From sequence record NC_103192.1: 64,000 nt of DNA. The stretch is one strand, 5' to 3'. This document shows positions 7,518 through 64,000 of this stretch, piece after piece. The notes under the pieces were generated by a model. That model saw only the letters and a list, made by a program, of their open reading frames with translations, did not search any database and had not been told where the DNA came from. Origin of the DNA: a phage. The position numbers were made by a program, and so were the translations under genes. Every line of letters begins with the position of its first letter. Within the stretch, counting starts at the first letter, position 1.

Positions 7518-9263
7518 ATGGCGCAAGACATGACAAGCTTCGAGCAGGCGGTAGATCAAGTAATTGTTGATTCTGAACGTTTGCACTTGATTGTCAACGG
7601 TAACGCTGTGGATGAAGTTGTCGTAGAGGATGGGACCACTATCCCTACGGTACGAAAAGCCATGCTTGACACCCTTTATTTTAAAACGCCGCCGATCCCT
7701 TGGGCGTATGGTGCATCCACAACAGTTTTTAACCAGTTGTATGAGTTTAAAGGAGATACGGGCACTCAGTGGTGGTACGCCCCAGCAGCATCAAAATCTA
7801 ACCCAGTTAGGATGCCAGCAGATCCTTCAGAATCTCCGAACTGGAGATTATATACCGATTCTGCAGTAATGGCAAAATACTACGCAAAACTTAACAGTCC
7901 AAGGTTCGAAGGTGACCCGAGAGTACCTACACCTCCAATGGACGATAAGTCCGAGTCTATAGCAAACACAGAGTTTGTTGTTGACTATGTGGATAGTATA
8001 TTCAAAGCCATGGAGGGGATGAAAGTAACTGTAGGGTCTTTGGTGGTAAAAGGTCTTACAGAACTTGCTAACACCATAGTTGGTGGCACCCTTACCTTGC
8101 ACGGGCCTGTTAATGGAGCGGATTCTACTGCACGCTTCAGGAACCTAATCCTTACTGCAAATACTTCTACATTGACTTTTGCGTGGAGCGATCCTAAGCA
8201 TGCAGACTGGAGAAGCACAGAGCTGCAACCTCATGAAGTATCCACCCACAGAGTTATAGCTGACACTATAACTTCTGGGAAACCAGTGGCTAATAACAAC
8301 GATGTGCATTTTGATGGTCTAGGTAATAACTTTTTTGACTACGTGTACATTCGTGGTAATGCCATGAAGGCAGCCACCGAACCGACATTGCAGGTTGATG
8401 GGACCACTAGGGTTAAGAACCTTGAGGTGACAGGCACCGTTACAGGGATAACCTACTCTGTAGATGGCACCATGATCTACCCTAGCTATATTGAAAGCAC
8501 GGGAGATGCACTGATCAATGGAGATTTAGAGGTTGGCGGGTCTGTAGTCATTCGTGGCACAGCATCTGTCCAGAACATATCTTTAAATACTCTGAGGGTG
8601 AATGAGCGTGCCACTTTTGAAGGAGAGGGGCTTACAGCCAACAAAGGTGTAATTACCGAGCTGACAACCACCACTCTAACTGCAACAACTGCAAACTCTG
8701 AAAACTGCAACGTTACCAGAAACTTGCAGGTAAATGGAGATGTTAGTTTAAACACAGCAGGGACGGGCACTACCCACCTTCACAACCTTGAAATATCAGG
8801 TACAGTGACTGGGTGGCTGCCAGACTTCTCTAATGTCAACTTTGTCTGTAATGGCATTAACTCCAGTGGCAAGATAACCACCTCTCAAGAAATTGAAGCT
8901 GGTAAAACTATTACTGCCCCTGCTTTCCATGCAGGGAAGGTGGAGTTTGACTTAGAGGAGGCTGACGCATCTAGTGGGACATGGACACCTAACGGGCAGG
9001 CCAATATGTATGTTGTCCACGCGAAAGGGGATTTTACAATAGGGCAATGGCCTGGAACATCGGCTGAAGATAAACCTTACCCGTTCACTGCAATCATCTA
9101 TGTCATTCAGGATGCTGTAGGCCACAACGTGACCTTACACGATAAATATGCCATACTGTCGGCTACTCCTGTTATTAACAACAAAGCCAACAGTGTCACC
9201 TTGCTACAATTGACATATTGTGGTGTTGGTGATATTGTGGATGTGGTTATTGCACAACGTTAA
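7518..9263 (+). CDS. tail fiber / tailspike-like protein
   Basis: 581 aa, repetitive T/G/N/V-rich segments (e.g. NLEVTGTVTG, NLEISGTVTG) typical of fibrous beta-structure proteins. Confidence 0.65.
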   Translation: MAQDMTSFEQAVDQVIVDSERLHLIVNGNAVDEVVVEDGTTIPTVRKAMLDTLYFKTPPIPWAYGASTTVFNQLYEFKGDTGTQWWYAPAASKSNPVRMPADPSESPNWRLYTDSAVMAKYYAKLNSPRFEGDPRVPTPPMDDKSESIANTEFVVDYVDSIFKAMEGMKVTVGSLVVKGLTELANTIVGGTLTLHGPVNGADSTARFRNLILTANTSTLTFAWSDPKHADWRSTELQPHEVSTHRVIADTITSGKPVANNNDVHFDGLGNNFFDYVYIRGNAMKAATEPTLQVDGTTRVKNLEVTGTVTGITYSVDGTMIYPSYIESTGDALINGDLEVGGSVVIRGTASVQNISLNTLRVNERATFEGEGLTANKGVITELTTTTLTATTANSENCNVTRNLQVNGDVSLNTAGTGTTHLHNLEISGTVTGWLPDFSNVNFVCNGINSSGKITTSQEIEAGKTITAPAFHAGKVEFDLEEADASSGTWTPNGQANMYVVHAKGDFTIGQWPGTSAEDKPYPFTAIIYVIQDAVGHNVTLHDKYAILSATPVINNKANSVTLLQLTYCGVGDIVDVVIAQR

Positions 9264-9270
9264 TATATCT

Positions 9271-9297
9271 GACCGCTCCTGACGGGGCGGTTTTCTT
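9271..9297 (+). terminator. stem-loop plus T-run (partial terminator/attenuator)
   Basis: accgctcctgacggggcggt followed by ttttctt right after the stop of 7518-9263. Confidence 0.5.
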
Positions 9298-9311
9298 ATC
9301 TGGAGAACACA

Positions 9312-12300
9312 ATGCTTCCAATCCCTTTGCTAAAACTTGGTCGTCATTTCCTCGATAAGAGGGGTGGAGTTAAGGAACTTGCTGTTCTGTCATACCCAAT
9401 AGACAACAGTGACGGTACAAGCACTACAGTAGCTTATGTAAATAGCTTAGCTATACTTTTTGACGACGGTCAGCTTAATATTACTGGCTATAACAAGTTC
9501 GGGGAGTGTCGCACTGGGGATCGTAACCCTATAAACTACCCGAGCGAGACGGCCTGGAATGTTGATCATGTGTGGAGAGCAGACCGTGCGTTTGTGATCC
9601 GGACTTTTGATAACCAGTTTTTCTACATCGGTTGCACTGCAGGTCTTATCGGATCCACTGCGGCAGGTGGTAACGATGTTTGCGTAAACGAGTGGACACC
9701 TCTTCCGGAACAGATTGTTCAAGGATTGCACCTTGACACCCACCCAGAGCGCCTTATCGAGGTAATGGGTGGTATTAACAACACTGTTTGGGTTATGGCA
9801 GAGGCTGAGGGTGACGGCATTTTACACCTGTACGGGTCTGGTAACAACACCTACGGATCTTTACATGTAGATAAGAACCAGCATGCAACTCCTGTAAAGA
9901 TTGGTGAAACATCAGAAAATCCTGAAACAGGCCCTTGGAAAAACCCAAGTATCAACTGCGAGGTGCATGACAACTCTGTTATTTTCGGTGGGCCTAGAGG
10001 TTTTTGGATTGCTGGATACGACTTTCTGAGAAACAACAGTAGAAACGACCTTGTTTGGCCCCCTGCTCAGATTACTCGCAACGATTTGAAAGGCATTCCT
10101 GCAGATGAGGAGTGGAAAGGATTCATGTGTGGTCCGAACGGGGCAGTGGTTGCAACACAAAGAATGCACAGACCTGATGACCAACAACTTGTTAACGTAT
10201 TTTATGGTCAAAACGTTTGGGGGGATGATACCTGGCGTGCTTTGAATATAACCTACACCCATGAGGTGATAATGGCTCGTGGGTACGGCACAAGTGGCAT
10301 TTTCTTCAACAATGGTACTAAGCAGTATCGTGGCTTCTCTCGAAACCTGTGCAACGATATTGGCGCACAATCTGCAAACAATAACCCCCGTGCCGATTTT
10401 GTTCATTACCAGGCCCTTGCTACGGCTAAATACGTTGAGCAACGCCTCCCAGTTAGCTGGACAGAGAGTGTTTATTTCCAAGGCATTCACAGAGAAGGTT
10501 TCTTAGGGACCTTTACTGTTGTTAATGGTAAACTTTGGTGGTCAGGCATCCCAAGGGGAAGTTTTGCAGGTTCTAATAACCTGTTTGGTGGCAGACTTAA
10601 TAGTCAAGGGTTCACAGAGGTTCCTGAGAATTGGTATAAAAATGTCCCAGTAGATAGTTGGGGTGTTGATGATATTTTTGACGTTAACGGTGTTAGCAGC
10701 GTTAGCAATATCTACATTGGTGACACGGTAAAGATGAAATTGAAGCCTCAGCCAGAGGGAGCTACGTTCATTATTGACAAGATTGAACTGGTAAATGCTG
10801 CAGGTACGGTTGTTACAGATGCAAATTACCAATTCTCCACCAACTGGAACCACGGCGGGGCCAACGAAGTTGTTGTTACTCAGTATAACAGGAATGTGAA
10901 CAGACGTGGCCTGTACTCTGTAAAAATAACCTATCATGACAAGCATGGCACAGGCAGAACGCACACGACAAGGAACTTGAACTGGAACACCATAGTTCCT
11001 GCGTATCCTTCTGACGGTAAGTGGCATACTGTCGGTAGAAACAAACAGTTCCATGTTAATGACACTGTATACTTCGGGCTGAATGGGACTCAGCCTGCGG
11101 TAGAAGGAGATACATCGTATATGGTCCGACTCCACAGAATGGATGGTGGATCAGTCACTTATGATGTTACCCAAGAGATTTATGATCAGAGACGAAATAC
11201 CTACAACAACTTAGTGCAGACACAGGCCGTATGGGAGTTCAACCCTAACGGCAGAGGTGGTAAAATGTTGCAGGTTAACGAGCAAAACGGAACGTCGTTG
11301 ACTGTCCACGAACACCCAGACCCTTGGCCTGATCCTGGAAAACCTCACCCAGGTGCTCGTACACTGAAAATTGTCAGCCATGATGCAGGATATTTCGGAA
11401 TACGCTGGGAAGCCACAGTAAGATATGCCGACGGGACAACAAACAACATAGGGATTACACTTGGGGGCACCAGTGAGGATAACTCACTGAAAATTGCCTA
11501 CACCCCTAGAGGCATCTCTATTGACAATATGGATGTTGTTCGCAACGGTTACGGAGATGTGAACATCAAAGTTACTCTTGGTGAACATCTTGGCGGGGAA
11601 AGGATCATCATGTACGCCTTTGATCACGACCCACGCACTGACGGAACCTATGCAGACCAAGCGTGGAGCTACCTGATAAGCGCACCTGAGCCAAATACCA
11701 AAGAATTCTACTACGGTATGAAACGGGATGTGTGCAAGAAAACAGGGACACATGACTGGATTGCAATCTGCGTTAAAGATGAACGTACCGCTTGGGACGA
11801 GCCTGTTAACAGATGGTTCATAGGAATTCCCACTCGAAGTGATAAATACGTTGAAGAATATATTGTATGCATGGGCGGCACCAACCTCAACATGTGTTGG
11901 AACGAGGATGCAAACAAATACTCTGATTACGATTATATGAGGGATTACTCTTGCAATCAATGGTTTAACCAAACCGGGTATGCTAATCGACAGTCAAGAG
12001 TAAACCCTGCAATCTTTACAGATACGCAGGTTTTCTTGACAAAACAGGCCAACGAGGTTCAGACCTTCAAGAACAAATACGACCCTAACAAGTGGTTTTA
12101 TAACTGTTATGGCGCATTTTTCTGGGGGCCAGGGGAACTGCCTAACGGGGGATCTTGCTTCGAGGCTGCAACTTACGCCAGTGACAGGTTCATGGGGCAG
12201 GTTAAGAAGTACAAGATAATCCCCGGGCCTGAAACTTTAGGCAACGCTGTTGACCCATATATCATCATGACAGCACTAAGATCGAACATGGACGGAACAT

Positions 12301-37105: not shown

Positions 37106-40100
37106 ATGAGCATGTATAGCTTCGATTTTGAGGCCTCCGGGCTTTTGGAAGATCCAGATCTTTATTATCACTGCGGCCTGTTTAAAGAGCTGAATAAGAA
37201 CCGTTTTATGCTGTTCCTCCCTCTAAATGACCGCACACACTACTCCGAGGAGGATATAGAGAAGGCTAAGAACTTTATTCTGGCAAAGAAAACTCTTTAT
37301 AAAGATTTTGAAGTTCGCATAGCAGATTTTTCAGAGTTGGAAGGTTGGCTTACAGGCAATTCTGACTGGTCACCAACAGCTTTGAACTGCCATAACTGCT
37401 ACAGTTATGACTTTATGCTGATGGAGAGATTATCCGGTATTCATTTTGATATGTTCCGTGATCCTAAATGCATGGGTACTATCAACGATCACCAGGTTAA
37501 CCTGTTTGATACGTTGGCGATGAGCCGAATCTTGTGGCCTGATCGCCCTTTACCAAAAGGTTGCCCGGACGCTGTATTCAACCCGGTTACTAAGAAAATG
37601 CAGCCTGTTGGTCCTCACGGCCTTATGGCATGGGGCTACGCTCTTGGTAACCAGAAAGTTCAAATTGATGACTGGCGCGATCTTCCGCTGTGGAAGTATG
37701 TGGATCGTGTATTTGAGGACGTTATCATCCAGGAGCTGCTCTGGAAAGAGCTAGTAGCGGAATCAAAAGGTGTATTCTACGGCAAATCTGACATGCAGAA
37801 CTTCATGTATGACCCTGCCAAAGAGAAGCCTAAAGGATTCAAGAAGATTACCTGGAAGAATGCATTACGCCGAGGCATGCTGCAGCACTTCCTGATGGAG
37901 CTGCAGGCCCGTCAGGGTGTGTATTTCGACATAGATGGGGCTATTGCTTTACGTGACCGTTGCGATGCGTGGATGAAAGAGATCGCTGATCGTGTTGAAC
38001 CTCAACTCCCTTTAAAAGAGTTGTCAATATCTCAGCGGCCCAAGTTCCCTGAAAAGCCGTTTAACCAAGATGGGACAATCTCCAATAATGGTTGGAAATG
38101 GTTAAAAGATAAGCTTGGCTACCCTGTGGACATGAGCGCTTTAGATTTCAAAGCCCCACCTAAGCGAGCATTTACCTCCACAGGAGATGTCAGTAAGATG
38201 GGGATAAAATGGTGTGAAGAGATGGGCTGCAAAGACCCCGATAAGATGGCTGCTTTCTTGAGAGGCTATATTAAGGGCACTTCCACACCACAACCTTTAC
38301 CTAAAGAGCTGATGGATCAGGCAATAAGTGATCTACAGCAGAAGCGAATGCCTGACTGCAAGATACCTATGAAAATCAGCAATCAGGACGACATTAAGCG
38401 ATACCTGATCAGTGCTGGTTGGCTTCCGACAATGTGGAGAACTAAGGATGTAACTAAAGACAGCAAGAAGAAAGCTCTACCTGATGCAGATGTTGATGCA
38501 CGAGTATATGCATATATGGACGAGCTTTTAGAGTCAGAGTATTGTGACCTAATTATCAACTTCTGGAACAAAACTGATGCTAAGTTTCAGACAACAGTGC
38601 ACAAGTTCCGAAGCTTTCCTAACTCCGAAAGGATTAAAAAGGAAGTATTCGGGAAAATACGCAGAAAAGCTAGGGCACTTATTACTTCCCCGCAACTGAA
38701 AGATACGTTTGGACACCTATGCCCGAATCTTGAAAGATTGAACGGAGAGATGGCTAAAGATATCGTCTTGTGGTTATCATTGCGAAACCGCAGATCGGTA
38801 CTTGATCCAATCAAGGAGGATAAGGTTGATACTGGTCTTCTTAATCACCCACGTTTGAAGATTGACCATAAGCTTCCTGCTAAAAGCTCTGGATTAACAA
38901 ACACTTCCCGACAGAAACACAGTATTTGTGCAAACATGCCTAAACCATCTCCTAAAGTGGTTATGGGTAAAGAGATGCGTAGTCTGTGGGGTGTTCCTCC
39001 AGGATACTTTGAGATCGGTATTGACGGGTCTAACTTGGAGCAGCTTATCGGGGCTTGGGGTGCCTTTGAGTTCGACAACGGCCTGTATTACGATGTTGTA
39101 AGTAACGGCGATGCACACTGTTATTCAGGAGATACACAAATTCTCACGGAGAAAGGGTGGGTGAGGTTTGAAGATCTTGATCCGGGAACACAAGTGTTCC
39201 AGTACGATCACAACACCTCGTCGATGAACCTTGTTACTCCATTAAATTACGTTAAGCGTAGTTATTGTGGGGATATGTATCATTTCCACAACAGCGGTGT
39301 GGATTTTATGGTTACAGATCAACACAGGATGCTGACCGTGGATCACAGAAGCAATAAATTGTTTGAAGATTTGGCAAAAGACCTGAAAGCAGGTAAAGGG
39401 TCTAATTCAGGAAGAAGGTTTATCCATGCGGCAGAGTTTTATGGGAATACAACCTTATCTCCTGCCCAGGTTAATTTGCTTATTGCTATTCACGATGATG
39501 GGCACTTGCATACAAATAAGGACGGCAGCATCGTGTGCAGGATTCAGGTCGGGAAGGGCAGAAAAGTTGCAACGCTTTTAGATACTTTTTCTGCTCTAAG
39601 CCTTAGTTATGTAGAGCAGAGCGGGAAAACCACAAAAGGGGGCTTACTGGCGAGAAGGTTCCAATTCCACGTTCCGTCCTGGGTATTTGAGTTTTTGGAC
39701 AGCAATAAGGATTTCACCTACAACCTGATGGACCTTGATAAAGAATCTAAAAACCTGTTTATAGCTTCTTTATCTAACTGGGACGGGTGGGTATCTTCCG
39801 AAGGTGGAAAAGTTGCCTACTACTCTCAGGCCGAGTGCAGGAAGAAATCTGTAGAGGTTGTGTCTGCGCTGGCTACTCAGTGTGGTTTACGGAATAATAC
39901 GGTAGCGATTCACAAAAAAGGTCGTTCCGTACAGCACAGAATCACGATTGGTAGCAAACAGAGAGCAGGGTTGCTGACACTATCTAAAGAGTCTGTCGAG
40001 GTGAGCGGTTCTTTGGTTTATTGCGTTACCGTCCCTTCTGGAGCAATCATTGTGAGAAGGAATGGTAAAGTGGCAGTGTGCGGTAACTGTAATAACGCCA

Positions 40101-41180
40101 AAGCTTACTCTTCTGTAGCAGGCAAGGAGATTTCCCGTAACGATGGTAAGCCTGTCACGTACGGTGTTATGTACGGGGCACAAAAAGATAAAGTTGCAGA
40201 TATGCTGGACATCTCTCCAGAGTTGGGACAAAGGGTAATCGATGCGCTTTGGGATGCCAACCCCGGTCTTAAGGGGCGTAAAGAGGATCTGGAGAAATTC
40301 TGGGAAGCAACTGGTAAGAAGTTTATCTACTCTTTTGATGGTCATGCCATCTGGACCCGATCTAAACACTCTTTACTTAATGCATACCAACAAAATGGTG
40401 GTGCATCGTTGTGTGACTTAGTTGGGATACTCATGCACCACCAAATGGTGAAGCGTGGGTGGTACGATGAAGGTGTTCGCCGTATTATCTATTACCATAA
40501 ATAACATTGTGGCTTCGTGCAGTGATGCACGTCGAAAACCTCTTTAATTGACGGGAAGGCTAAGTTGACTTTTACACCTAAACATGGTAAAAGCTCGATA
40601 TGCTAATCCGCAGCGAAGCATCCGAGAGGATGAACGTTCAGAGACTATCGAAAGCATAGCTCCAGCATAGTTTGGTGTGAAGAAGCGAGTAGAGTAGGCC
40701 AGCAAGTGCGGTCGAAATGAGAGGTGCCTTGGTAACAAGGCAGTGAGATAGTCCGATCCATACGGGAAACTGTATGGCTATGCACGTAATGGTGCGGGGT
40801 AGCTTAACGACCTACCTGAACTATTGGATGAGTACCAACTTCAAGTACCTGACACACCGAAGTATAAGACTGTGTACACCTTCGACACAATCGAAGAACT
40901 GGAAGCATTTAAGGCAGAGCAGGAGGCCAAACTTCATGTGTTCGACGGTCATAAGTACAAAAAGGCACGCAAGGATGAGGACGGAAACGAAGTGGTTGAC
41001 AGAGACGGAAACACGGTGTACGATCCTATCCTGAACGATGACGGAAAGCTTGAACTTATCTGGAGCCCTGTGGGTGAAATGGTGGTGCATTGCTTCTGGC
41101 AAGCTTCTAAAATGATGGGCGTCCCATTCCAGATCACAGGTGAATACTTGTGTGGGGCTAATTGGGGTAGTTGTCACTAA
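37106..41180 (+). CDS. family A DNA polymerase, exons 37106-40498 and 40827-41180, containing an intein
   Basis: N-terminal exo motif FDFEASGL; motif A IDGSNLEQL; KPVTYGVMYGAQ (motif B region); HDE motif split across the intron (YYH | DEYQL); C-terminus GANWGSCH. Confidence 0.85.
39119..40087 (+). mobile_element. intein (323 aa) with LAGLIDADG-like homing endonuclease domain
   Basis: begins CYSGDTQILTEKGW (block A), block B TDQH, LAGLIDADG-like LLIAIHDDGHL and LFIASLSNWDGW, ends ...VCGN followed by Cys +1; extein flanks GDAH/CNNAK fit the family A pol O-helix region. Confidence 0.7.
40499..40826 (+). ncRNA. group I self-splicing intron (ORF-less)
   Basis: core elements P aattgacgggaagg (40546-40559), Q aatccgcagc (40605-40614), R gttcagagacta (40636-40647), S agatagtcc (40746-40754); 5' exon ends in U, intron ends in G; restores the HDE motif in frame. 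Confidence 0.8.
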
Positions 41181-58979: not shown

Positions 58980-59180
58980 ATGAAACGTTTTACTTATGGC
59001 GTTGTTGGTGGGTATGTATCTAACCGTTTTTACAATACCGAGCGTGGTGCTAAAAATGCCGCTACCCGTGAACATGGCAATAGTGTGAATTTACAAATTG
59101 GTTATATTAGCAACATTAGTGGTATGTTTATTCCGGTTGCTCAACGCGGCATGTATTGCATAAACTGGATGCCAATGTAA
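58980..59180 (+). CDS. hypothetical protein
   Basis: 66-aa ORF. Confidence 0.45.
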   Translation: MKRFTYGVVGGYVSNRFYNTERGAKNAATREHGNSVNLQIGYISNISGMFIPVAQRGMYCINWMPM

Positions 59181-60618: not shown

Positions 60619-61038
60619 ATGAACATTAAATCTAATAATCCGGCATATAGCTTTGATAACGCTTTTTGTCACGGTCCGGCGGCGAAAGGATTCGAAATCG
60701 ATGGTAAACTAATTATTGTCAATGTTGACGGGGAAGAGGTTGCAGTATATCCGGTGGCAGACGTTAAAAGCCGTTTGCAATGCCGCATGGATGTTACCGC
60801 CTACCAGCTTGATCCGGTCCGCATAGTTGCCCTGGTCCTGGAGGAAGAGATCAAAGCAATGCACCACAGCAACAAGTTTATTGGTGACGCTCAAGATAAT
60901 ATGAAGGTGTGCCGCCATAAAGTTAATGAAGTGCTTAAAGAATATGGCTTTAAAGATCTGATGATCAAACGTGAGGAAAAATTCCGCTACCGTAACGACC
61001 TGGCAAATCGGATTTTTGAAATATACGAATCATTATAA
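60619..61038 (+). CDS. hypothetical protein
   Basis: 139-aa ORF after AAGAGG. Confidence 0.55.
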   Translation: MNIKSNNPAYSFDNAFCHGPAAKGFEIDGKLIIVNVDGEEVAVYPVADVKSRLQCRMDVTAYQLDPVRIVALVLEEEIKAMHHSNKFIGDAQDNMKVCRHKVNEVLKEYGFKDLMIKREEKFRYRNDLANRIFEIYESL

Positions 61039-61057
61039 TTTCTTAACTGAATTATCA

Positions 61058-61083
61058 AGGGGCTTAAAGGCCCCTTTCTTTTT
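61058..61083 (+). terminator. intrinsic terminator closing the small-gene module
   Basis: aggggcttaaaggcccct followed by ttcttttt. Confidence 0.65.
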
Positions 61084-61099
61084 GTCTGCTCTTCTCCTA

Positions 61100-63600
61100 C
61101 CATAAACGGCCCCACCCGGCAAGTGGAATAATTGACTAGCCAGCAATTGCCTGCACTGTACAAACATACAGGTAAAATAGTTATTGCATAACCTTTCATT
61201 GTGTGGTAGCAGTGCCATTTTTACACGTTTTTCCTTCCAAAATTGCACGTAATGCCGCTATTGCATAAATTTTAACCTGATGCATATCTTCAATATCTTG
61301 TCAACAACTAAAAATCTTTATAAGTCATACACTTACACCACCACAAAAGCGTGTTCTACGTGAAAAATCGGGTGTAACTATAGCCGCCAGATCTCAGAAT
61401 TTACGTACGCTCACCAGTCTATAGCCTGCTAAGTATTTATTCCAACCATAGAATAACGGAATAGTCAATACCTGCATAAAATAATTATTCGTGTAAACTG
61501 CATAACATAAATCAGCCAGGGTGTCAACATTTTTCGTAAACATCTCGAAATTATCACGATGAGTTATCATAAACAGAGAAATCTTTAGTCGTCTAATGTT
61601 TACTGTACATTACTATACTGGCTGGAATCATTAGATGACTAAGAGAAAGATAAGAAATAGTTAACAATGTAATTGTTTTACCTGTAACAATAAGGCAACT
61701 ATGCAAACGAATGGCATGGCGCGACGGAGTCGCGACATAATATAAAAGCAGTAACCATCACCCCCGTGATAGTTTGTCTGCAAACTATTAATCAGATCAT
61801 AGTTGCCTTGTAGTTAGTTAATCATGACACAATAAGCAAGGCAACTATAGATCTGCTAATAGTTGCCCTGCTTTTATATTATGTCATAGAAACACCCGAA
61901 GGGGTGACCGAAGGTCACCTGGCCTAGCCAGTGAAAGATTATTAACTTGTTAATTGTTAACTTGCTAATTGTTTTCATGCAAACGAATGTCATGGCTTAT
62001 CATATCTGCGTGAACAGTGAAACATGGAAATGATAAATATGTGAACAGTTATCCATGTAAACTATTAGACATGCAAACAATCAGGTGTGCAAAAGTGACA
62101 TAGTATGTCACCAGTATGTCATAGTATGTCAGACAAGTTTTTCTCCTCTTTGTCAAGTGCTGCATGGAAAATTTACAAACTGGTATGGTAGCATTTTTGC
62201 GGCCCTGTTTACATTCAGGAGTGTATGTATAATCCTTGTTGTGTGGGCGTTTAGACGTCTGGACGGTCAGAAGTCCGCAGGTTAATATCTAATCTATTGG
62301 TTGCTAACTATATCCCACACAAATAGTAAGAAATATAATTGTTATATGCGTAAACAGTAACTCATGTTATCAATCCATGTATGGATCGCCAGTGGTGCGC
62401 ATAATGGGTATTATGTTAAATTGCCCGTAATGATAACCATTCCCACAATGATAGGTATTCTCATTCACCCCCACAAGATAGGTTGCAAATGTTGTGCCAC
62501 TGTGTGAACGGCCTCACCTATTAATTTGCCCCACTGCCTCGATATTTGAGAATTGTTATAAGAATGAGAAGTATTCCCATTCCGTCCGCCTGGCAGCACT
62601 CCAGTCGCTAACGCTCTCGGGCTGAGAGCTATGCTCGATGCTACCGGCTCCTGACAGGGAGGCACTCCTGTAGGACAGGTCAAAATCGGGGCATAACTGG
62701 ACCCCCCTTCAGATATTTCTGGCTGACTCTTCAGGTCTGTGTGGGAAAAGCCAACCTCTCCGGCAGAGGGGAGGGGGTCAATTAAAAAATTTACGTGGTG
62801 TATGAAGCGCTCTTCAGGCAAGGTGTGTATTATGGGAGGAATCACTCTTCAGGTGATGATATTTGTGGGTGTGATATTTGCTGGAAAGCCAGATATGACG
62901 GGACTCCCGGCGGGGCAGGGGTAGTACAGACAGGGAAAATGTGGAGAATGTGGTGGGTAAATTGATCAGGCAGGTAGAGTATGAAATATGTTACAGGTAT
63001 GTTAAATATGGAGGGTGAATATCTGTAAGATTTGTGTGTAAAATCAAAGACTTAAGTGGTGTTGTGGTATTTTCTATAAATAATTCAAGTTTAATAGGTA
63101 ATATTTGTCTCTATCCACTTTGTGTGGTAACCAGATTCAGATGAAATTGGTTTACAAGTGTATACATAATATACAAATTAAAGATACAAGAAACCCCCCT
63201 CCCCCTTCGGCTACCATTCACCTTTTCCTCTGACTGGTACTTAAACACTTATTCAGACTCTTCAGGTTATCACCCATATATCATATGGCAGTGACTGGTG
63301 TCCTCCGGCCCCTCTTTCGTCACCCGTCCGCTTCGCCATGCTAATGCCATAGCCAAAGGTTCGGTTGTTCACCCTGTTCACTCAGGTGTATCTCCATACC
63401 CCTTCAAACCGAAGAGAACAGAAAACCCGAATTACTCGGTAAAAGAAAAGAGAAGAACTTAATTTTATCAGGATAGGCAAGAATGTCAAGGCATGACTGC
63501 TCACTAAACAAGCAAACAGTCATGTGTGGGAGGTAAGTGATTGTGGTGGTAGGAAATTTAGTTGAAAGATGTGTTATAGGTGCTTCCAGCACTTTAGCCG
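61100..63600. repeat. 2.5-kb non-coding, repeat-dense region
   Basis: no convincing ORF; ggcaactat/atagttgcc x4 in alternating orientation (61691-61879); 18-bp inverted repeat gacataatataaaagcag / ctgcttttatattatgtc; agtatgtca x3 (62098-62135); ctcttcagg x4; attgcataa x3. Confidence 0.5.
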
Positions 63601-63616
63601 GGCAGCTAATTGTGTG

Positions 63617-63832
63617 TCAGTCCAGCGGTTCATCTACTACTTCACTGAAATCAATGTTCAGAGTCTCTTCCCAACCATCGATCTCAGCACAAGAGTGGAG
63701 TTCTTTAGGGTTTACTCCCAAAGCCTCAGCAACAGAGTCTATATTTAACACCTCTGGCAGGTATGATTCATCGAATTCAAGGTAAATCAGGCCACGAGTG
63801 TTGTCAGCTCCACCAAATATTTCTATCTTCAT
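63617..63832 (-). CDS. hypothetical acidic protein
   Basis: 71-aa ORF with AGAGGAG 5 nt upstream of ATG on the minus strand. Confidence 0.5.
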   Translation of the reverse strand: MKIEIFGGADNTRGLIYLEFDESYLPEVLNIDSVAEALGVNPKELHSCAEIDGWEETLNIDFSEVVDEPLD

Positions 63833-64000
63833 AAAATCTCCTCTGGAAATGAGAGTGTGAACAGGGTTATACGTTCCAATGCACTGGAATTTATATACGT
63901 TTGCCTCTTCAGGCCATGCTTTAGCATGATAAACTTGTGTGGGCTCGGTACTTCATAGTCTGCCACCTCTGAACTCTTCGTTCTCAGGCATGATAGAGAA

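Follow-up and report, generated by a model that had tools for sequence, protein, structure and literature searches.

The locus described here occupies positions 61,100 to 63,600 of a window of 64,000 nucleotides (sequence record NC_103192.1, from a phage; the window is the whole stretch of DNA that was analysed), and the element in question is a gene-free interval whose centre corresponds to a terminal repeat of related phages. Two gene units converge on these ~2.5 kb, both being transcribed toward the genome ends. The rightward unit stops at 61038 and is followed by an intrinsic terminator, which the annotation of relatives places at the equivalent position; on the other side, the leftward unit is bordered by a minus-strand gene whose stop lies at 63617. 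A preliminary description of this DNA, made from its letters alone, had claimed that the interval contains no credible open reading frame (ORF), and this holds from the terminator to the stop at 63617. With a cut-off of 60 aa, the two largest ORF-free gaps of the window (836 and 479 bp) are both located within the interval, and such gaps do not exceed 373 bp elsewhere in the 64 kb. The coordinates of the individual features are collected in Table 1.

Table 1. Features of the gene-free interval and of its borders, in window coordinates; the strand is left empty for features without orientation.
Feature	Position	Strand	Remarks
Intrinsic terminator	61057-61076	+	8-bp stem with 5 G-C pairs, then T-run; left edge of the gene-free region
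Conserved non-coding block	61090-61690		58-86% of columns invariant in 16 genomes, almost no indels
Composite palindrome, ~150 bp	61694-61885		18-bp inverted repeat (61734-61751 / 61868-61885) with nested dyads between its arms
Segment bounded by 20-bp direct repeats ATGCAAACGAATGNCATGGC	61701-61996	+	Copies at 61701-61720 and 61977-61996
50-nt triple-hairpin element (CACCCGAAGGGGTG, GACCGAAGGTC, CTGGCCTAGCCAG)	61888-61937		Present or absent among genomes
Copy-number-variable arrays	61938-62098	+	ATTGTTAACTTGYTA x2.4, then ~16-nt units with GTRAACAGT / GTAAACTAT
AGTATGTCA x3, period 10-11	62099-62131	+	Ends exactly at the terminal-repeat boundary
Terminal repeat (by homology), single collapsed copy, 459 bp	62132-62590		95.9% identical to the Gotham/HdK5 repeat
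Indel-rich flank with two GCRCTCCWGT direct repeats	62591-62690		8-18% of columns invariant, 30-43% gaps
Four CTCTTCAGG sites	62727-63266	+	Starts 62727, 62810, 62845, 63258; a fifth at 63905, also +
AT-rich stretch	63030-63185		27% G+C, between the G-rich block and the conserved block
Conserved block, candidate RNA of ~265 nt (predicted transcript)	63190-63455	-	Based on conservation and promoter
Sigma-70 promoter TTGACA-16-TGaTAAAAT	63462-63489	-	Reads leftward, toward the terminal repeat
First gene of the leftward unit, 71 aa, phrog_12108	63617-63832	-	Right edge of the gene-free region; annotated in relatives

A megablast search of 61000-63700 against a phage collection matched 121 records at 90-95% identity, 97 of which cover at least 80% of the query. 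The matching records are essentially all Vequintavirus, that is rV5-like myoviruses with genomes of ~131-143 kb, and a DNA search in distant mode returned 121 records again, with no relative outside this genus. Judged by this similarity, the window is part of the genome of a Vequintavirus, an rV5-like myovirus and coliphage, and it represents a separate genome, the nearest record being ~92% identical. Since 121 Vequintavirus records match, the observations below concern a conserved feature of a well-sampled phage genus. The interval itself has been drawn before: in the passages of the 2013 rV5 paper that deal with it (Kropinski et al., PMC3606486), it appears as a grey "non-coding" box with genes 163 and 164 on either side, in which bidirectional terminators were expected and which is otherwise left unexplained. 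Conservation was assessed in an alignment of 16 genomes, namely the window, rV5, FV3, V18, Murica, APCEc02, navn, naswa, Alma, CM1, JLBYU08, rV5_ev156, C9, Gotham, HdK5 and one IMG/VR contig (IMGVR_3300010279). A second, divergent lineage was obtained from IMG/VR and metagenomes (contigs L004, L022, L024-L027, L037, L042 and L045, hereafter lineage 2), of which the divergent relative L004 corresponds to IMGVR_UViG_3300045988_159287. Lineage 2 shares only patches of similarity with the window, yet its layout is alike. Pattern scans of IMG/VR and of one metagenome yielded one further lineage only, the rest being chance matches such as L031.

The gene-free interval is real and non-coding. PHROG families were matched by both flanking genes and by none of eight internal ORFs. 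Of the 16 ORFs inside the interval, 13 are broken in one or more of the 16 genomes aligned. Among those intact in all 16, an ORF of 47 aa (62364-62507) has variable columns distributed as 14/16/12 by codon position and encodes 16 different proteins; the remaining two are located in almost invariant DNA, and lineage 2 has frameshifts in both. A coding signature in the form of a conserved frame, a third-position bias or a family match was sought across relatives and not found. Conserved genes that would be frameshifted in this phage, named in the preliminary description as the observation that would speak against a non-coding region, were sought as well and none was detected.

The centre of the interval coincides with the place where the records of close relatives end. 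In a sensitive search, the Gotham, HdK5, ECP2303 and YN3 records all stop at the query position equivalent to 62132 of the window, the base right after the third copy of AGTATGTCA. The Gotham and HdK5 records carry an exact direct repeat of 459 bp at both ends, which maps only once to the window, at 62132-62590, and which the Gotham record annotates as repeat_region (1-459 and 136567-137025). The YN3 record has an exact terminal repeat of 458 bp with the same boundaries, and the ECP2303 record is cut at the shared left boundary, with the repeat present once. Identical sequence at both ends has been seen in the records of these relatives and is predicted for the phage studied here. Terminal redundancies of 458 bp are reported for the Vequintavirus phages HdK5 and EdH4 in the pertinent sections of Korf 2019 (PMC6563267), whose methods state that the genomes were linearised where most reads ended abruptly, and the terminal repeat of Gotham is given in the corresponding passage of Dias et al. 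2020 (PMC7471380). For KPP-1, a relative within the subfamily, a repeat of 514 bp with two-fold coverage and a PhageTerm call of T7-type packaging have been described. Alignment thus identifies 62132-62590 as the homologue of the direct terminal repeat of 458/459 bp of close relatives. Since the assembly carries this repeat once, the virion DNA is predicted to start at 62132 and to end at 62590, with the repeat at both ends. A genome terminus was one of several options offered in the preliminary description, and it is directly supported by this homology; the triple AGTATGTCA would abut one physical end.

The left boundary, TGTCA|GACAAGTTTT (in wider context TRTGTCA|GACAAGTTTT), and the right one, CGTCCGCC|TGGCAGC, do not vary at all among the 16 genomes of the alignment, and 54-88% of the columns are invariant inside the repeat. 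Lineage 2 keeps the right boundary word, its homology with the window stopping exactly at 62590/62591 (CGCCTGCC|T), and on the left its layout consists of three copies of GTGGAAACAGTTGCAGG, then two or three of AAGTATGCCT, then the conserved repeat start ACAAATTTCGCTCTTTTTGTCAACC. If each is read on the strand running into the repeat, the two boundaries have the word TGYCA|GRC in common, the significance of which is uncertain, and more TGTCA-like words are present outside each boundary, again oriented into the repeat. In the record of Shigella phage CM1 (MK962749.1, L014), a perfect tandem duplication of 523 bp (window ~62057-62590) has its right end exactly at 62590; it is probably an assembly artefact in which both copies of the repeat were kept.

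Short-repeat arrays lie just outside the repeat on both sides, with GTRAACAGT and ~10-nt TRTGTCA units on the left and GCRCTCCWGT on the right, and analogous arrays adjoin the predicted repeat in lineage 2. The triple tandem AGTATGTCA listed in the preliminary description is present in exactly three copies (62102, 62113 and 62123) and constitutes the last part of the left array. Its final TGTCA is invariant, and the ~10-nt units ending in TGTCA number 2 to 5 among relatives. Further to the left, the ~16-nt GTRAACAGT / GTAAACTAT units range from 1 to ~9 among relatives, with ~5 in the window, and the word GTRAACAG is 24 times denser in the array than in the rest of the window. No column is invariant across 61890-62131 in the alignment. 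On the right, several relatives show a deletion between the GCRCTCCWGT repeats. From their sequence, the flanking arrays are plausible candidates for protein-binding sites. Adjacent to the left arrays, the triple-hairpin element occurs once in the window and is absent from Gotham and from IMGVR_3300010279; three copies are found in the lineage-2 contig L022, and L023 and L024 also have additional ones. Its behaviour is that of a small palindromic element that duplicates.

The composite palindrome combines the half-sites GGCAACTAT / ATAGTTGCC and CAAACTAT / ATAGTTTG into operator-like dyads between the 18-bp arms (CAAACTAT-N10-ATAGTTGCC and GGCAACTAT-N10-ATAGTTGCC, plus ATAGTTTG-N4-CAAACTAT), with an extra GGCAACTAT at 61694. 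Four alternating copies of this 9-bp site, nested inside an 18-bp inverted repeat, had been a central point of the preliminary description. The four copies are indeed found within 174 bp, with starts at 61694, 61799, 61840 and 61859 and alternating orientation, and in the window as a whole the site is found five times, where chance would give 0.48. The 18-bp repeat is also perfect, but its arms, which are located at 61734-61751 and 61868-61885 and not at 61736-61753 and 61876-61893, enclose no more than three of the four sites. Folded as single-stranded DNA, 61690-61940 reaches -57.1 kcal/mol, compared with -23.6 +/- 3.5 for shuffled sequences (z = -9.5). Fifteen of the 16 genomes have the block in near-invariant form; FV3 lacks it, one copy of ATGCAAACGAATGNCATGGC being left there and the segment between the direct repeats (61721-61976) missing. 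The palindrome is therefore probably dispensable, and the GGCAACTAT block so emphasised before is unlikely to be the essential site of the region. AACTAT-type words are also present at ~61375 and in lineage 2, a distribution that fits a conserved DNA-binding protein. In the conserved block 61090-61690, the motifs TGTCAACAACTAAAAATCTTTATAA (61299-61323) and GTAACTATAGCC (~61370-61381) are kept in lineage 2, L004 retaining nothing else of it, and the ORFs of this block are broken in relatives. A sigma-70 promoter was considered at 61298-61324 and rejected on account of its poor spacing on both strands.

To the right of the repeat, the four CTCTTCAGG sites mentioned in the preliminary description are confirmed, all on the plus strand. 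The word occurs seven times in the window against 0.40 expected, five of these being on the plus strand within 62727-63913. A G/T-rich word of the TGTGKG type follows three of the four copies of the interval at a distance of 2-15 nt; none is near the copy at 63258, and for the copy at 63905 it lies 22 nt downstream. These sites are kept in relatives, L004 having five plus-strand copies at the equivalent place, and one copy is located inside a small indel in lineage 2. The base composition is equally uneven. The plus strand is strongly G-rich over 62820-63060 (GC skew +0.65 to +0.75) and turns C-rich past the AT-rich stretch, a candidate DNA-unwinding region. Around this stretch, 94% of the columns are invariant at 63040-63089 and 36-44% at 63090-63189. 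Two other repeats of the preliminary description fared less well. The inverted pair GGGGAGGGGG / CCCCCTCCCC does exist (62768-62777 and 63195-63204), but its left arm is not conserved in relatives, so that a long-range helix was rejected and the pair is probably fortuitous. As to the three copies of ATTGCATAA, only two are in the interval, the third being at 59155, and three in the window against 1.1 expected is a chance-level count, reached by 9 of 100 shuffles; these repeats were dropped as a feature. In L004, a gene for an HNH_3 endonuclease (8716-9486, plus strand; Pfam E = 1.6e-18) is inserted in the non-coding terminal region, between blocks homologous to 62839-62935 and 63360-63473 of the window.

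The right part of the interval contains its best conserved segment. In 50-bp bins over 63190-63540, the proportion of invariant columns is 80-98%, and in most bins 90-98%, a level far higher than in the remainder of the interval; the segment best conserved in lineage 2 (~77% identity over 63360-63473) is part of this stretch. The promoter at its right end matches 11 of 12 consensus positions, has an extended -10 element and is the sole strong promoter match inside the gene-free interval. The two hexamers are preserved throughout the 16 genomes, with a spacer longer by 2 bp in one relative. In lineage 2 the promoter reads TTGCAA-17-TGcTATAAT with an otherwise diverged spacer, and hexamers that are kept while the spacer diverges are the pattern expected of a functional promoter. 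The predicted transcript has a CU-rich 5' end and a 5' hairpin followed by a U-run. The pairing of this hairpin is preserved between the lineages by three compensatory changes (CCGAG/UUCGG versus CCAGAA/UUCUGG). The transcript also contains two GTGAACA words, as in the arrays left of the repeat and in inverted orientation, and would reach G5AG6-UUUCUU ~265 nt downstream, at a 3' end adjoining the AT-rich stretch. Rfam 15 gave nothing in the interval at the gathering score and, at E values up to 10, chance-level matches only, to eukaryotic or viral families; ARAGORN found no tRNA or tmRNA in the interval, and a literature search for Vequintavirus transcriptomics returned nothing relevant. The segment 63190-63490 is accordingly regarded as a conserved, promoter-driven non-coding element. 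The preliminary description had offered non-coding RNAs and a replication origin among its options; both receive some support here, at a sub-region that it had not singled out.

Taken together, these observations argue in favor of the interval being the terminal region, or concatemer junction, of a Vequintavirus genome with T7-type packaging, a reading to which a probability of roughly 0.78 can be attached. By analogy with T7, replication would produce concatemers with one copy of the repeat between genomes. Terminase would then recognise signals around the repeat and nick opposite strands at the two invariant boundaries, presumably at TGTCA|GAC on the plus strand and at TGCCA|GGC on the minus strand. 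Fill-in of the resulting 5' overhangs of 459 nt would provide each genome with a full repeat, according to the nick and fill-in scheme of T7-type packaging. The variable arrays outside both boundaries, including the three AGTATGTCA units, would probably serve as landing sites for terminase or accessory proteins, or as spacers. The palindrome with its AACTAT-type dyads, ~250-440 bp left of the repeat, may act as an accessory protein-binding or hairpin-forming element. As for 63190-63490, its transcription from a host-type promoter toward the repeat would most likely yield the primer RNA of a transcription-activated origin, or an early regulatory RNA.

This organization recalls the junction of T7 and T3, in which the SRL and SRR short-repeat arrays flank the repeat, together with pac signals, a nearby promoter and origin and a hairpin intermediate. 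That anatomy is said to have been described by Dunn and Studier in 1983 and by Chung and Hinkle in 1990. The likeness extends to a short exact terminal repeat in a non-coding region, to short-repeat arrays immediately outside both boundaries, to a palindrome on one side that could form a long hairpin, to a promoter reading toward the junction, and to the typing of KPP-1 as a T7-type phage. The differences are nonetheless substantial. The virus studied here is a 137-kb myovirus without a phage RNA polymerase and with a promoter of the host sigma-70 type, its repeat measures 459 bp instead of 160 bp in T7, its non-coding flanks extend over ~1 kb on each side with genes facing the ends, there is no sequence similarity, and nicking with fill-in is assumed from the T7 precedent. 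Within the genus, the rV5 non-coding box and the HdK5, EdH4 and Gotham repeats represent the same locus, with 88-95% identity over the whole interval. The repeat of the window is of the HdK5/Gotham type with identical boundary sequences, and the window differs from the published relatives by its own array lengths, such as three perfect copies of the AGTATGTCA unit and only some five of the 16-nt one. The closest functional precedent is that of T7, whose packaging and phagemids need an origin, a pac signal and a terminal repeat, as stated in the relevant passage of PMC13236587 (citing Chung and Hinkle 1990).

Several observations weigh against this interpretation or against parts of it. The physical ends predicted for the virion DNA of this phage are extrapolated from its relatives, and a 2026 paper, using PhageTerm on a phage-cocktail assembly, calls one Vequintavirus a headful (pac) packager. 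This call conflicts with the defined ends reported by others and was given less weight than three records with exact repeats. The shared boundary word TGYCA|GRC is short and not evident in lineage 2, and the loss of the palindrome block from FV3 implies that the block is not essential, if the FV3 assembly is correct. What is proposed here for the function of the arrays, of the palindrome and of the CTCTTCAGG sites is an inference, as is every functional role beyond that of a terminal repeat region. DnaA boxes (TTWTNCACA) number 6 in the window against 8.6 expected, with 2 relaxed matches in the interval. The RNA evidence for the promoter-driven block is suggestive at best. Single-sequence folding of 63185-63460 is not significant on either strand (z = -1.4 and -0.7). 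Alignment folding does exceed column shuffles (z = -3.3 to -4.6), and in a first MAFFT alignment it looked specific to the minus strand (z = -4.55 versus -1.72 for the plus strand). In an anchor-based alignment, however, both strands behave alike (z = -3.3 and -3.65), so that the strand specificity was rejected and no proven structure is claimed. The compensatory pairs of this anchored alignment amount to 10 against a shuffle mean of 6.5, and 30 of 200 shuffles reach 10; with two lineages only, the covariation reflects few independent changes.

Among the other explanations, the interval could primarily be a replication origin, the GTRAACAGT units, AACTAT dyads and CTCTTCAGG sites being initiator iterons and the repeat merely lying nearby. 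This possibility is a minority one, although far from negligible. The short repeats are dense, conserved and oriented, and the conserved promoter is followed by the AT-rich stretch, as in transcription-activated origins, an arrangement that is compatible with an origin and no proof of it. In the sections of the rV5 paper that address replication (PMC3606486), the authors could not place an origin and noted a skew change in the interval; a T7 gp4-like primase-helicase is also listed there for rV5. Lineage-2 relatives carry two to three perfect DnaA boxes (TGTGGATAA) in direct orientation inside the predicted terminal repeat (L004 7845-7884; L022, reverse complement, 557-596; L027 6430-6457). 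Against these points, the arrays beside the repeat show free variation in both their sequence and the number of their copies, FV3 lacks the dyad block, the window has no excess of DnaA boxes, and G-rich and C-rich blocks of local extent account for the switches in skew. Origin and terminus are in any case compatible readings, and both may hold. A more specific form of the idea, less probable still than the general one, would make 63190-63490 an origin at the genome end primed by an RNA of the host RNA polymerase. The sigma-70 promoter would fire toward the repeat as the DNA enters, the G-rich transcript of ~265 nt would stall at the CSBII-like G5AG6 run, and a persistent R-loop beside the AT-rich stretch would prime the first round of replication; the processing of the ends might benefit as well from transcription directed at the junction. 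Known transcription-activated origins include the primary origin of T7 (promoters followed by an AT-rich region), ori(uvsY) and ori(34) of T4 and RNA II of ColE1, and the G-run of mitochondrial CSBII (G6AG8) stalls transcription and forms a primer R-loop. The locus resembles these systems by its conserved strong promoter, by its conserved transcribed segment of ~265 nt, G-rich in the RNA, by a G5AG6 run followed by U residues, as compared with the CSBII run, and by the AT-rich stretch immediately beyond. It departs from known origins in that the window has no initiator or DnaA-box cluster, the start of replication at this place being a proposal, and in that the homing-endonuclease gene of L004 sits just beyond the G-run. 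If correct, such a primer RNA would locate the origin of rV5-like phages and constitute the counterpart, in a bacterial virus, of the mitochondrial CSBII primer mechanism.

The key content of the interval could instead be one or more non-coding RNA genes, mainly the leftward RNA of ~265 nt driven by the promoter at 63489-63462 and acting in trans. This is a tentative reading, about as plausible as the broader origin proposal, and the trans role could, for instance, be in host takeover or in the countering of host defence. The conservation of the promoter across two lineages, the high conservation of the transcribed block, the three compensatory pairs of the 5' hairpin, a helix that may close the RNA by pairing its CU-rich 5' end with its G-rich 3' end, and the z values of alignment folding all speak for it. 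They are counterbalanced by the lack of an Rfam match even at E = 10, by the non-significant single-sequence folding, by a structural signal that is not strand-specific with a covariation count not above shuffles, by the few independent changes that two lineages can offer, and by the fact that the RNA covers only ~10% of the interval. A region controlling injection or protecting the ends, in which arrays and palindrome would pause DNA entry or, at the end that enters, bind proteins of host or phage, appears improbable. T5 has a repeat-rich non-coding injection-stop region within its terminal repeat. The locus is comparable in being a kilobase-scale gene-free region, rich in repeats and palindromes, near the ends of a virulent coliphage genome; it is found at both physical genome ends, with many direct and inverted repeats and a large palindrome, and genes begin only ~1 kb from either end. 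On the other hand, the T5 repeat is ~10 kb long, contains genes and shows no sequence similarity, the palindrome is dispensable in FV3, and to our knowledge no two-step DNA transfer has been reported for rV5-like phages. Protection of the ends by Chi was considered and rejected, the Chi sequence GCTGGTGG being absent from both strands of the 64 kb. Finally, a decayed or mis-assembled coding sequence, frameshifted here and intact in relatives, is already largely refuted and hardly deserves any credence. Some records annotate small hypothetical proteins in the region (14 under the match in the case of MiataMamis), APCEc02 labels one ORF of 44 aa "structural protein", and three small ORFs are uninterrupted throughout the 16-genome alignment. 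The annotated ORFs nevertheless differ from one GenBank record to the next, the better-curated rV5, FV3 and BASEL phages annotate none, and the interruptions, the codon-position counts, the lineage-2 frameshifts and the absence of PHROG families reported above leave little room for genes. The APCEc02 product in question, FDG86_gp065 (L017 1912-2046; window ~62710-62850), is in a frame that is not conserved in relatives.

The terminal repeat and the non-coding box are both already published. The passages of the rV5, Korf and Dias papers found by keyword do not place the repeat inside the box, and they contain no description of the palindrome, of the arrays that flank the repeat or of the conserved block with its promoter. 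As far as could be found, the new elements are therefore the position of the repeat within the box and the fine anatomy of the region, and the advance consists of this anatomy and of hypotheses rather than of a new kind of element. The practical interest of the terminal region comes from the fact that rV5-like phages are widely isolated and are candidates for therapy and biocontrol. In GenBank, the majority of their records are opened at arbitrary positions, spurious small proteins are predicted here in some of them, and one contains two tandem copies of the repeat. Knowledge of the true ends, marked by invariant boundary words, would allow correct linearisation, a correct genome length and the rational design of packaging-competent constructs. 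The same anatomy provides candidates for terminase recognition, namely the arrays and the boundary words, and the promoter-driven block, more conserved than the surrounding 2.5 kb, is a candidate for the still unmapped origin or for an early RNA.

A few additional observations were made in the course of this work. FV3, Alma and APCEc02 lack the last gene before the non-coding region (60619-61038, plus strand; 139 aa, phrog_12277); in these genomes, a gene of 264 nt mislabelled "DNA translocase FtsK" takes its place as the last one. Nineteen "Campylobacter phage" records are Vequintavirus genomes ~90% identical to those of coliphages, which makes their host label doubtful; the one that was opened, MG065661.1 (L020), is flagged UNVERIFIED. 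No tRNA gene was found in this half of the genome. Elsewhere in the window, the region 37106-41180 (plus strand) contains a group I intron (Rfam RF00028, 73.7 bits) at 40489-40776, located at the 3' end of an ORF of 1132 aa and followed by an exon-like ORF at 40824-41180. The 1132-aa ORF also has an intein-like insert (CYSGDTQILTEKGW...), so that a single gene appears to hold both an intein and an intron.

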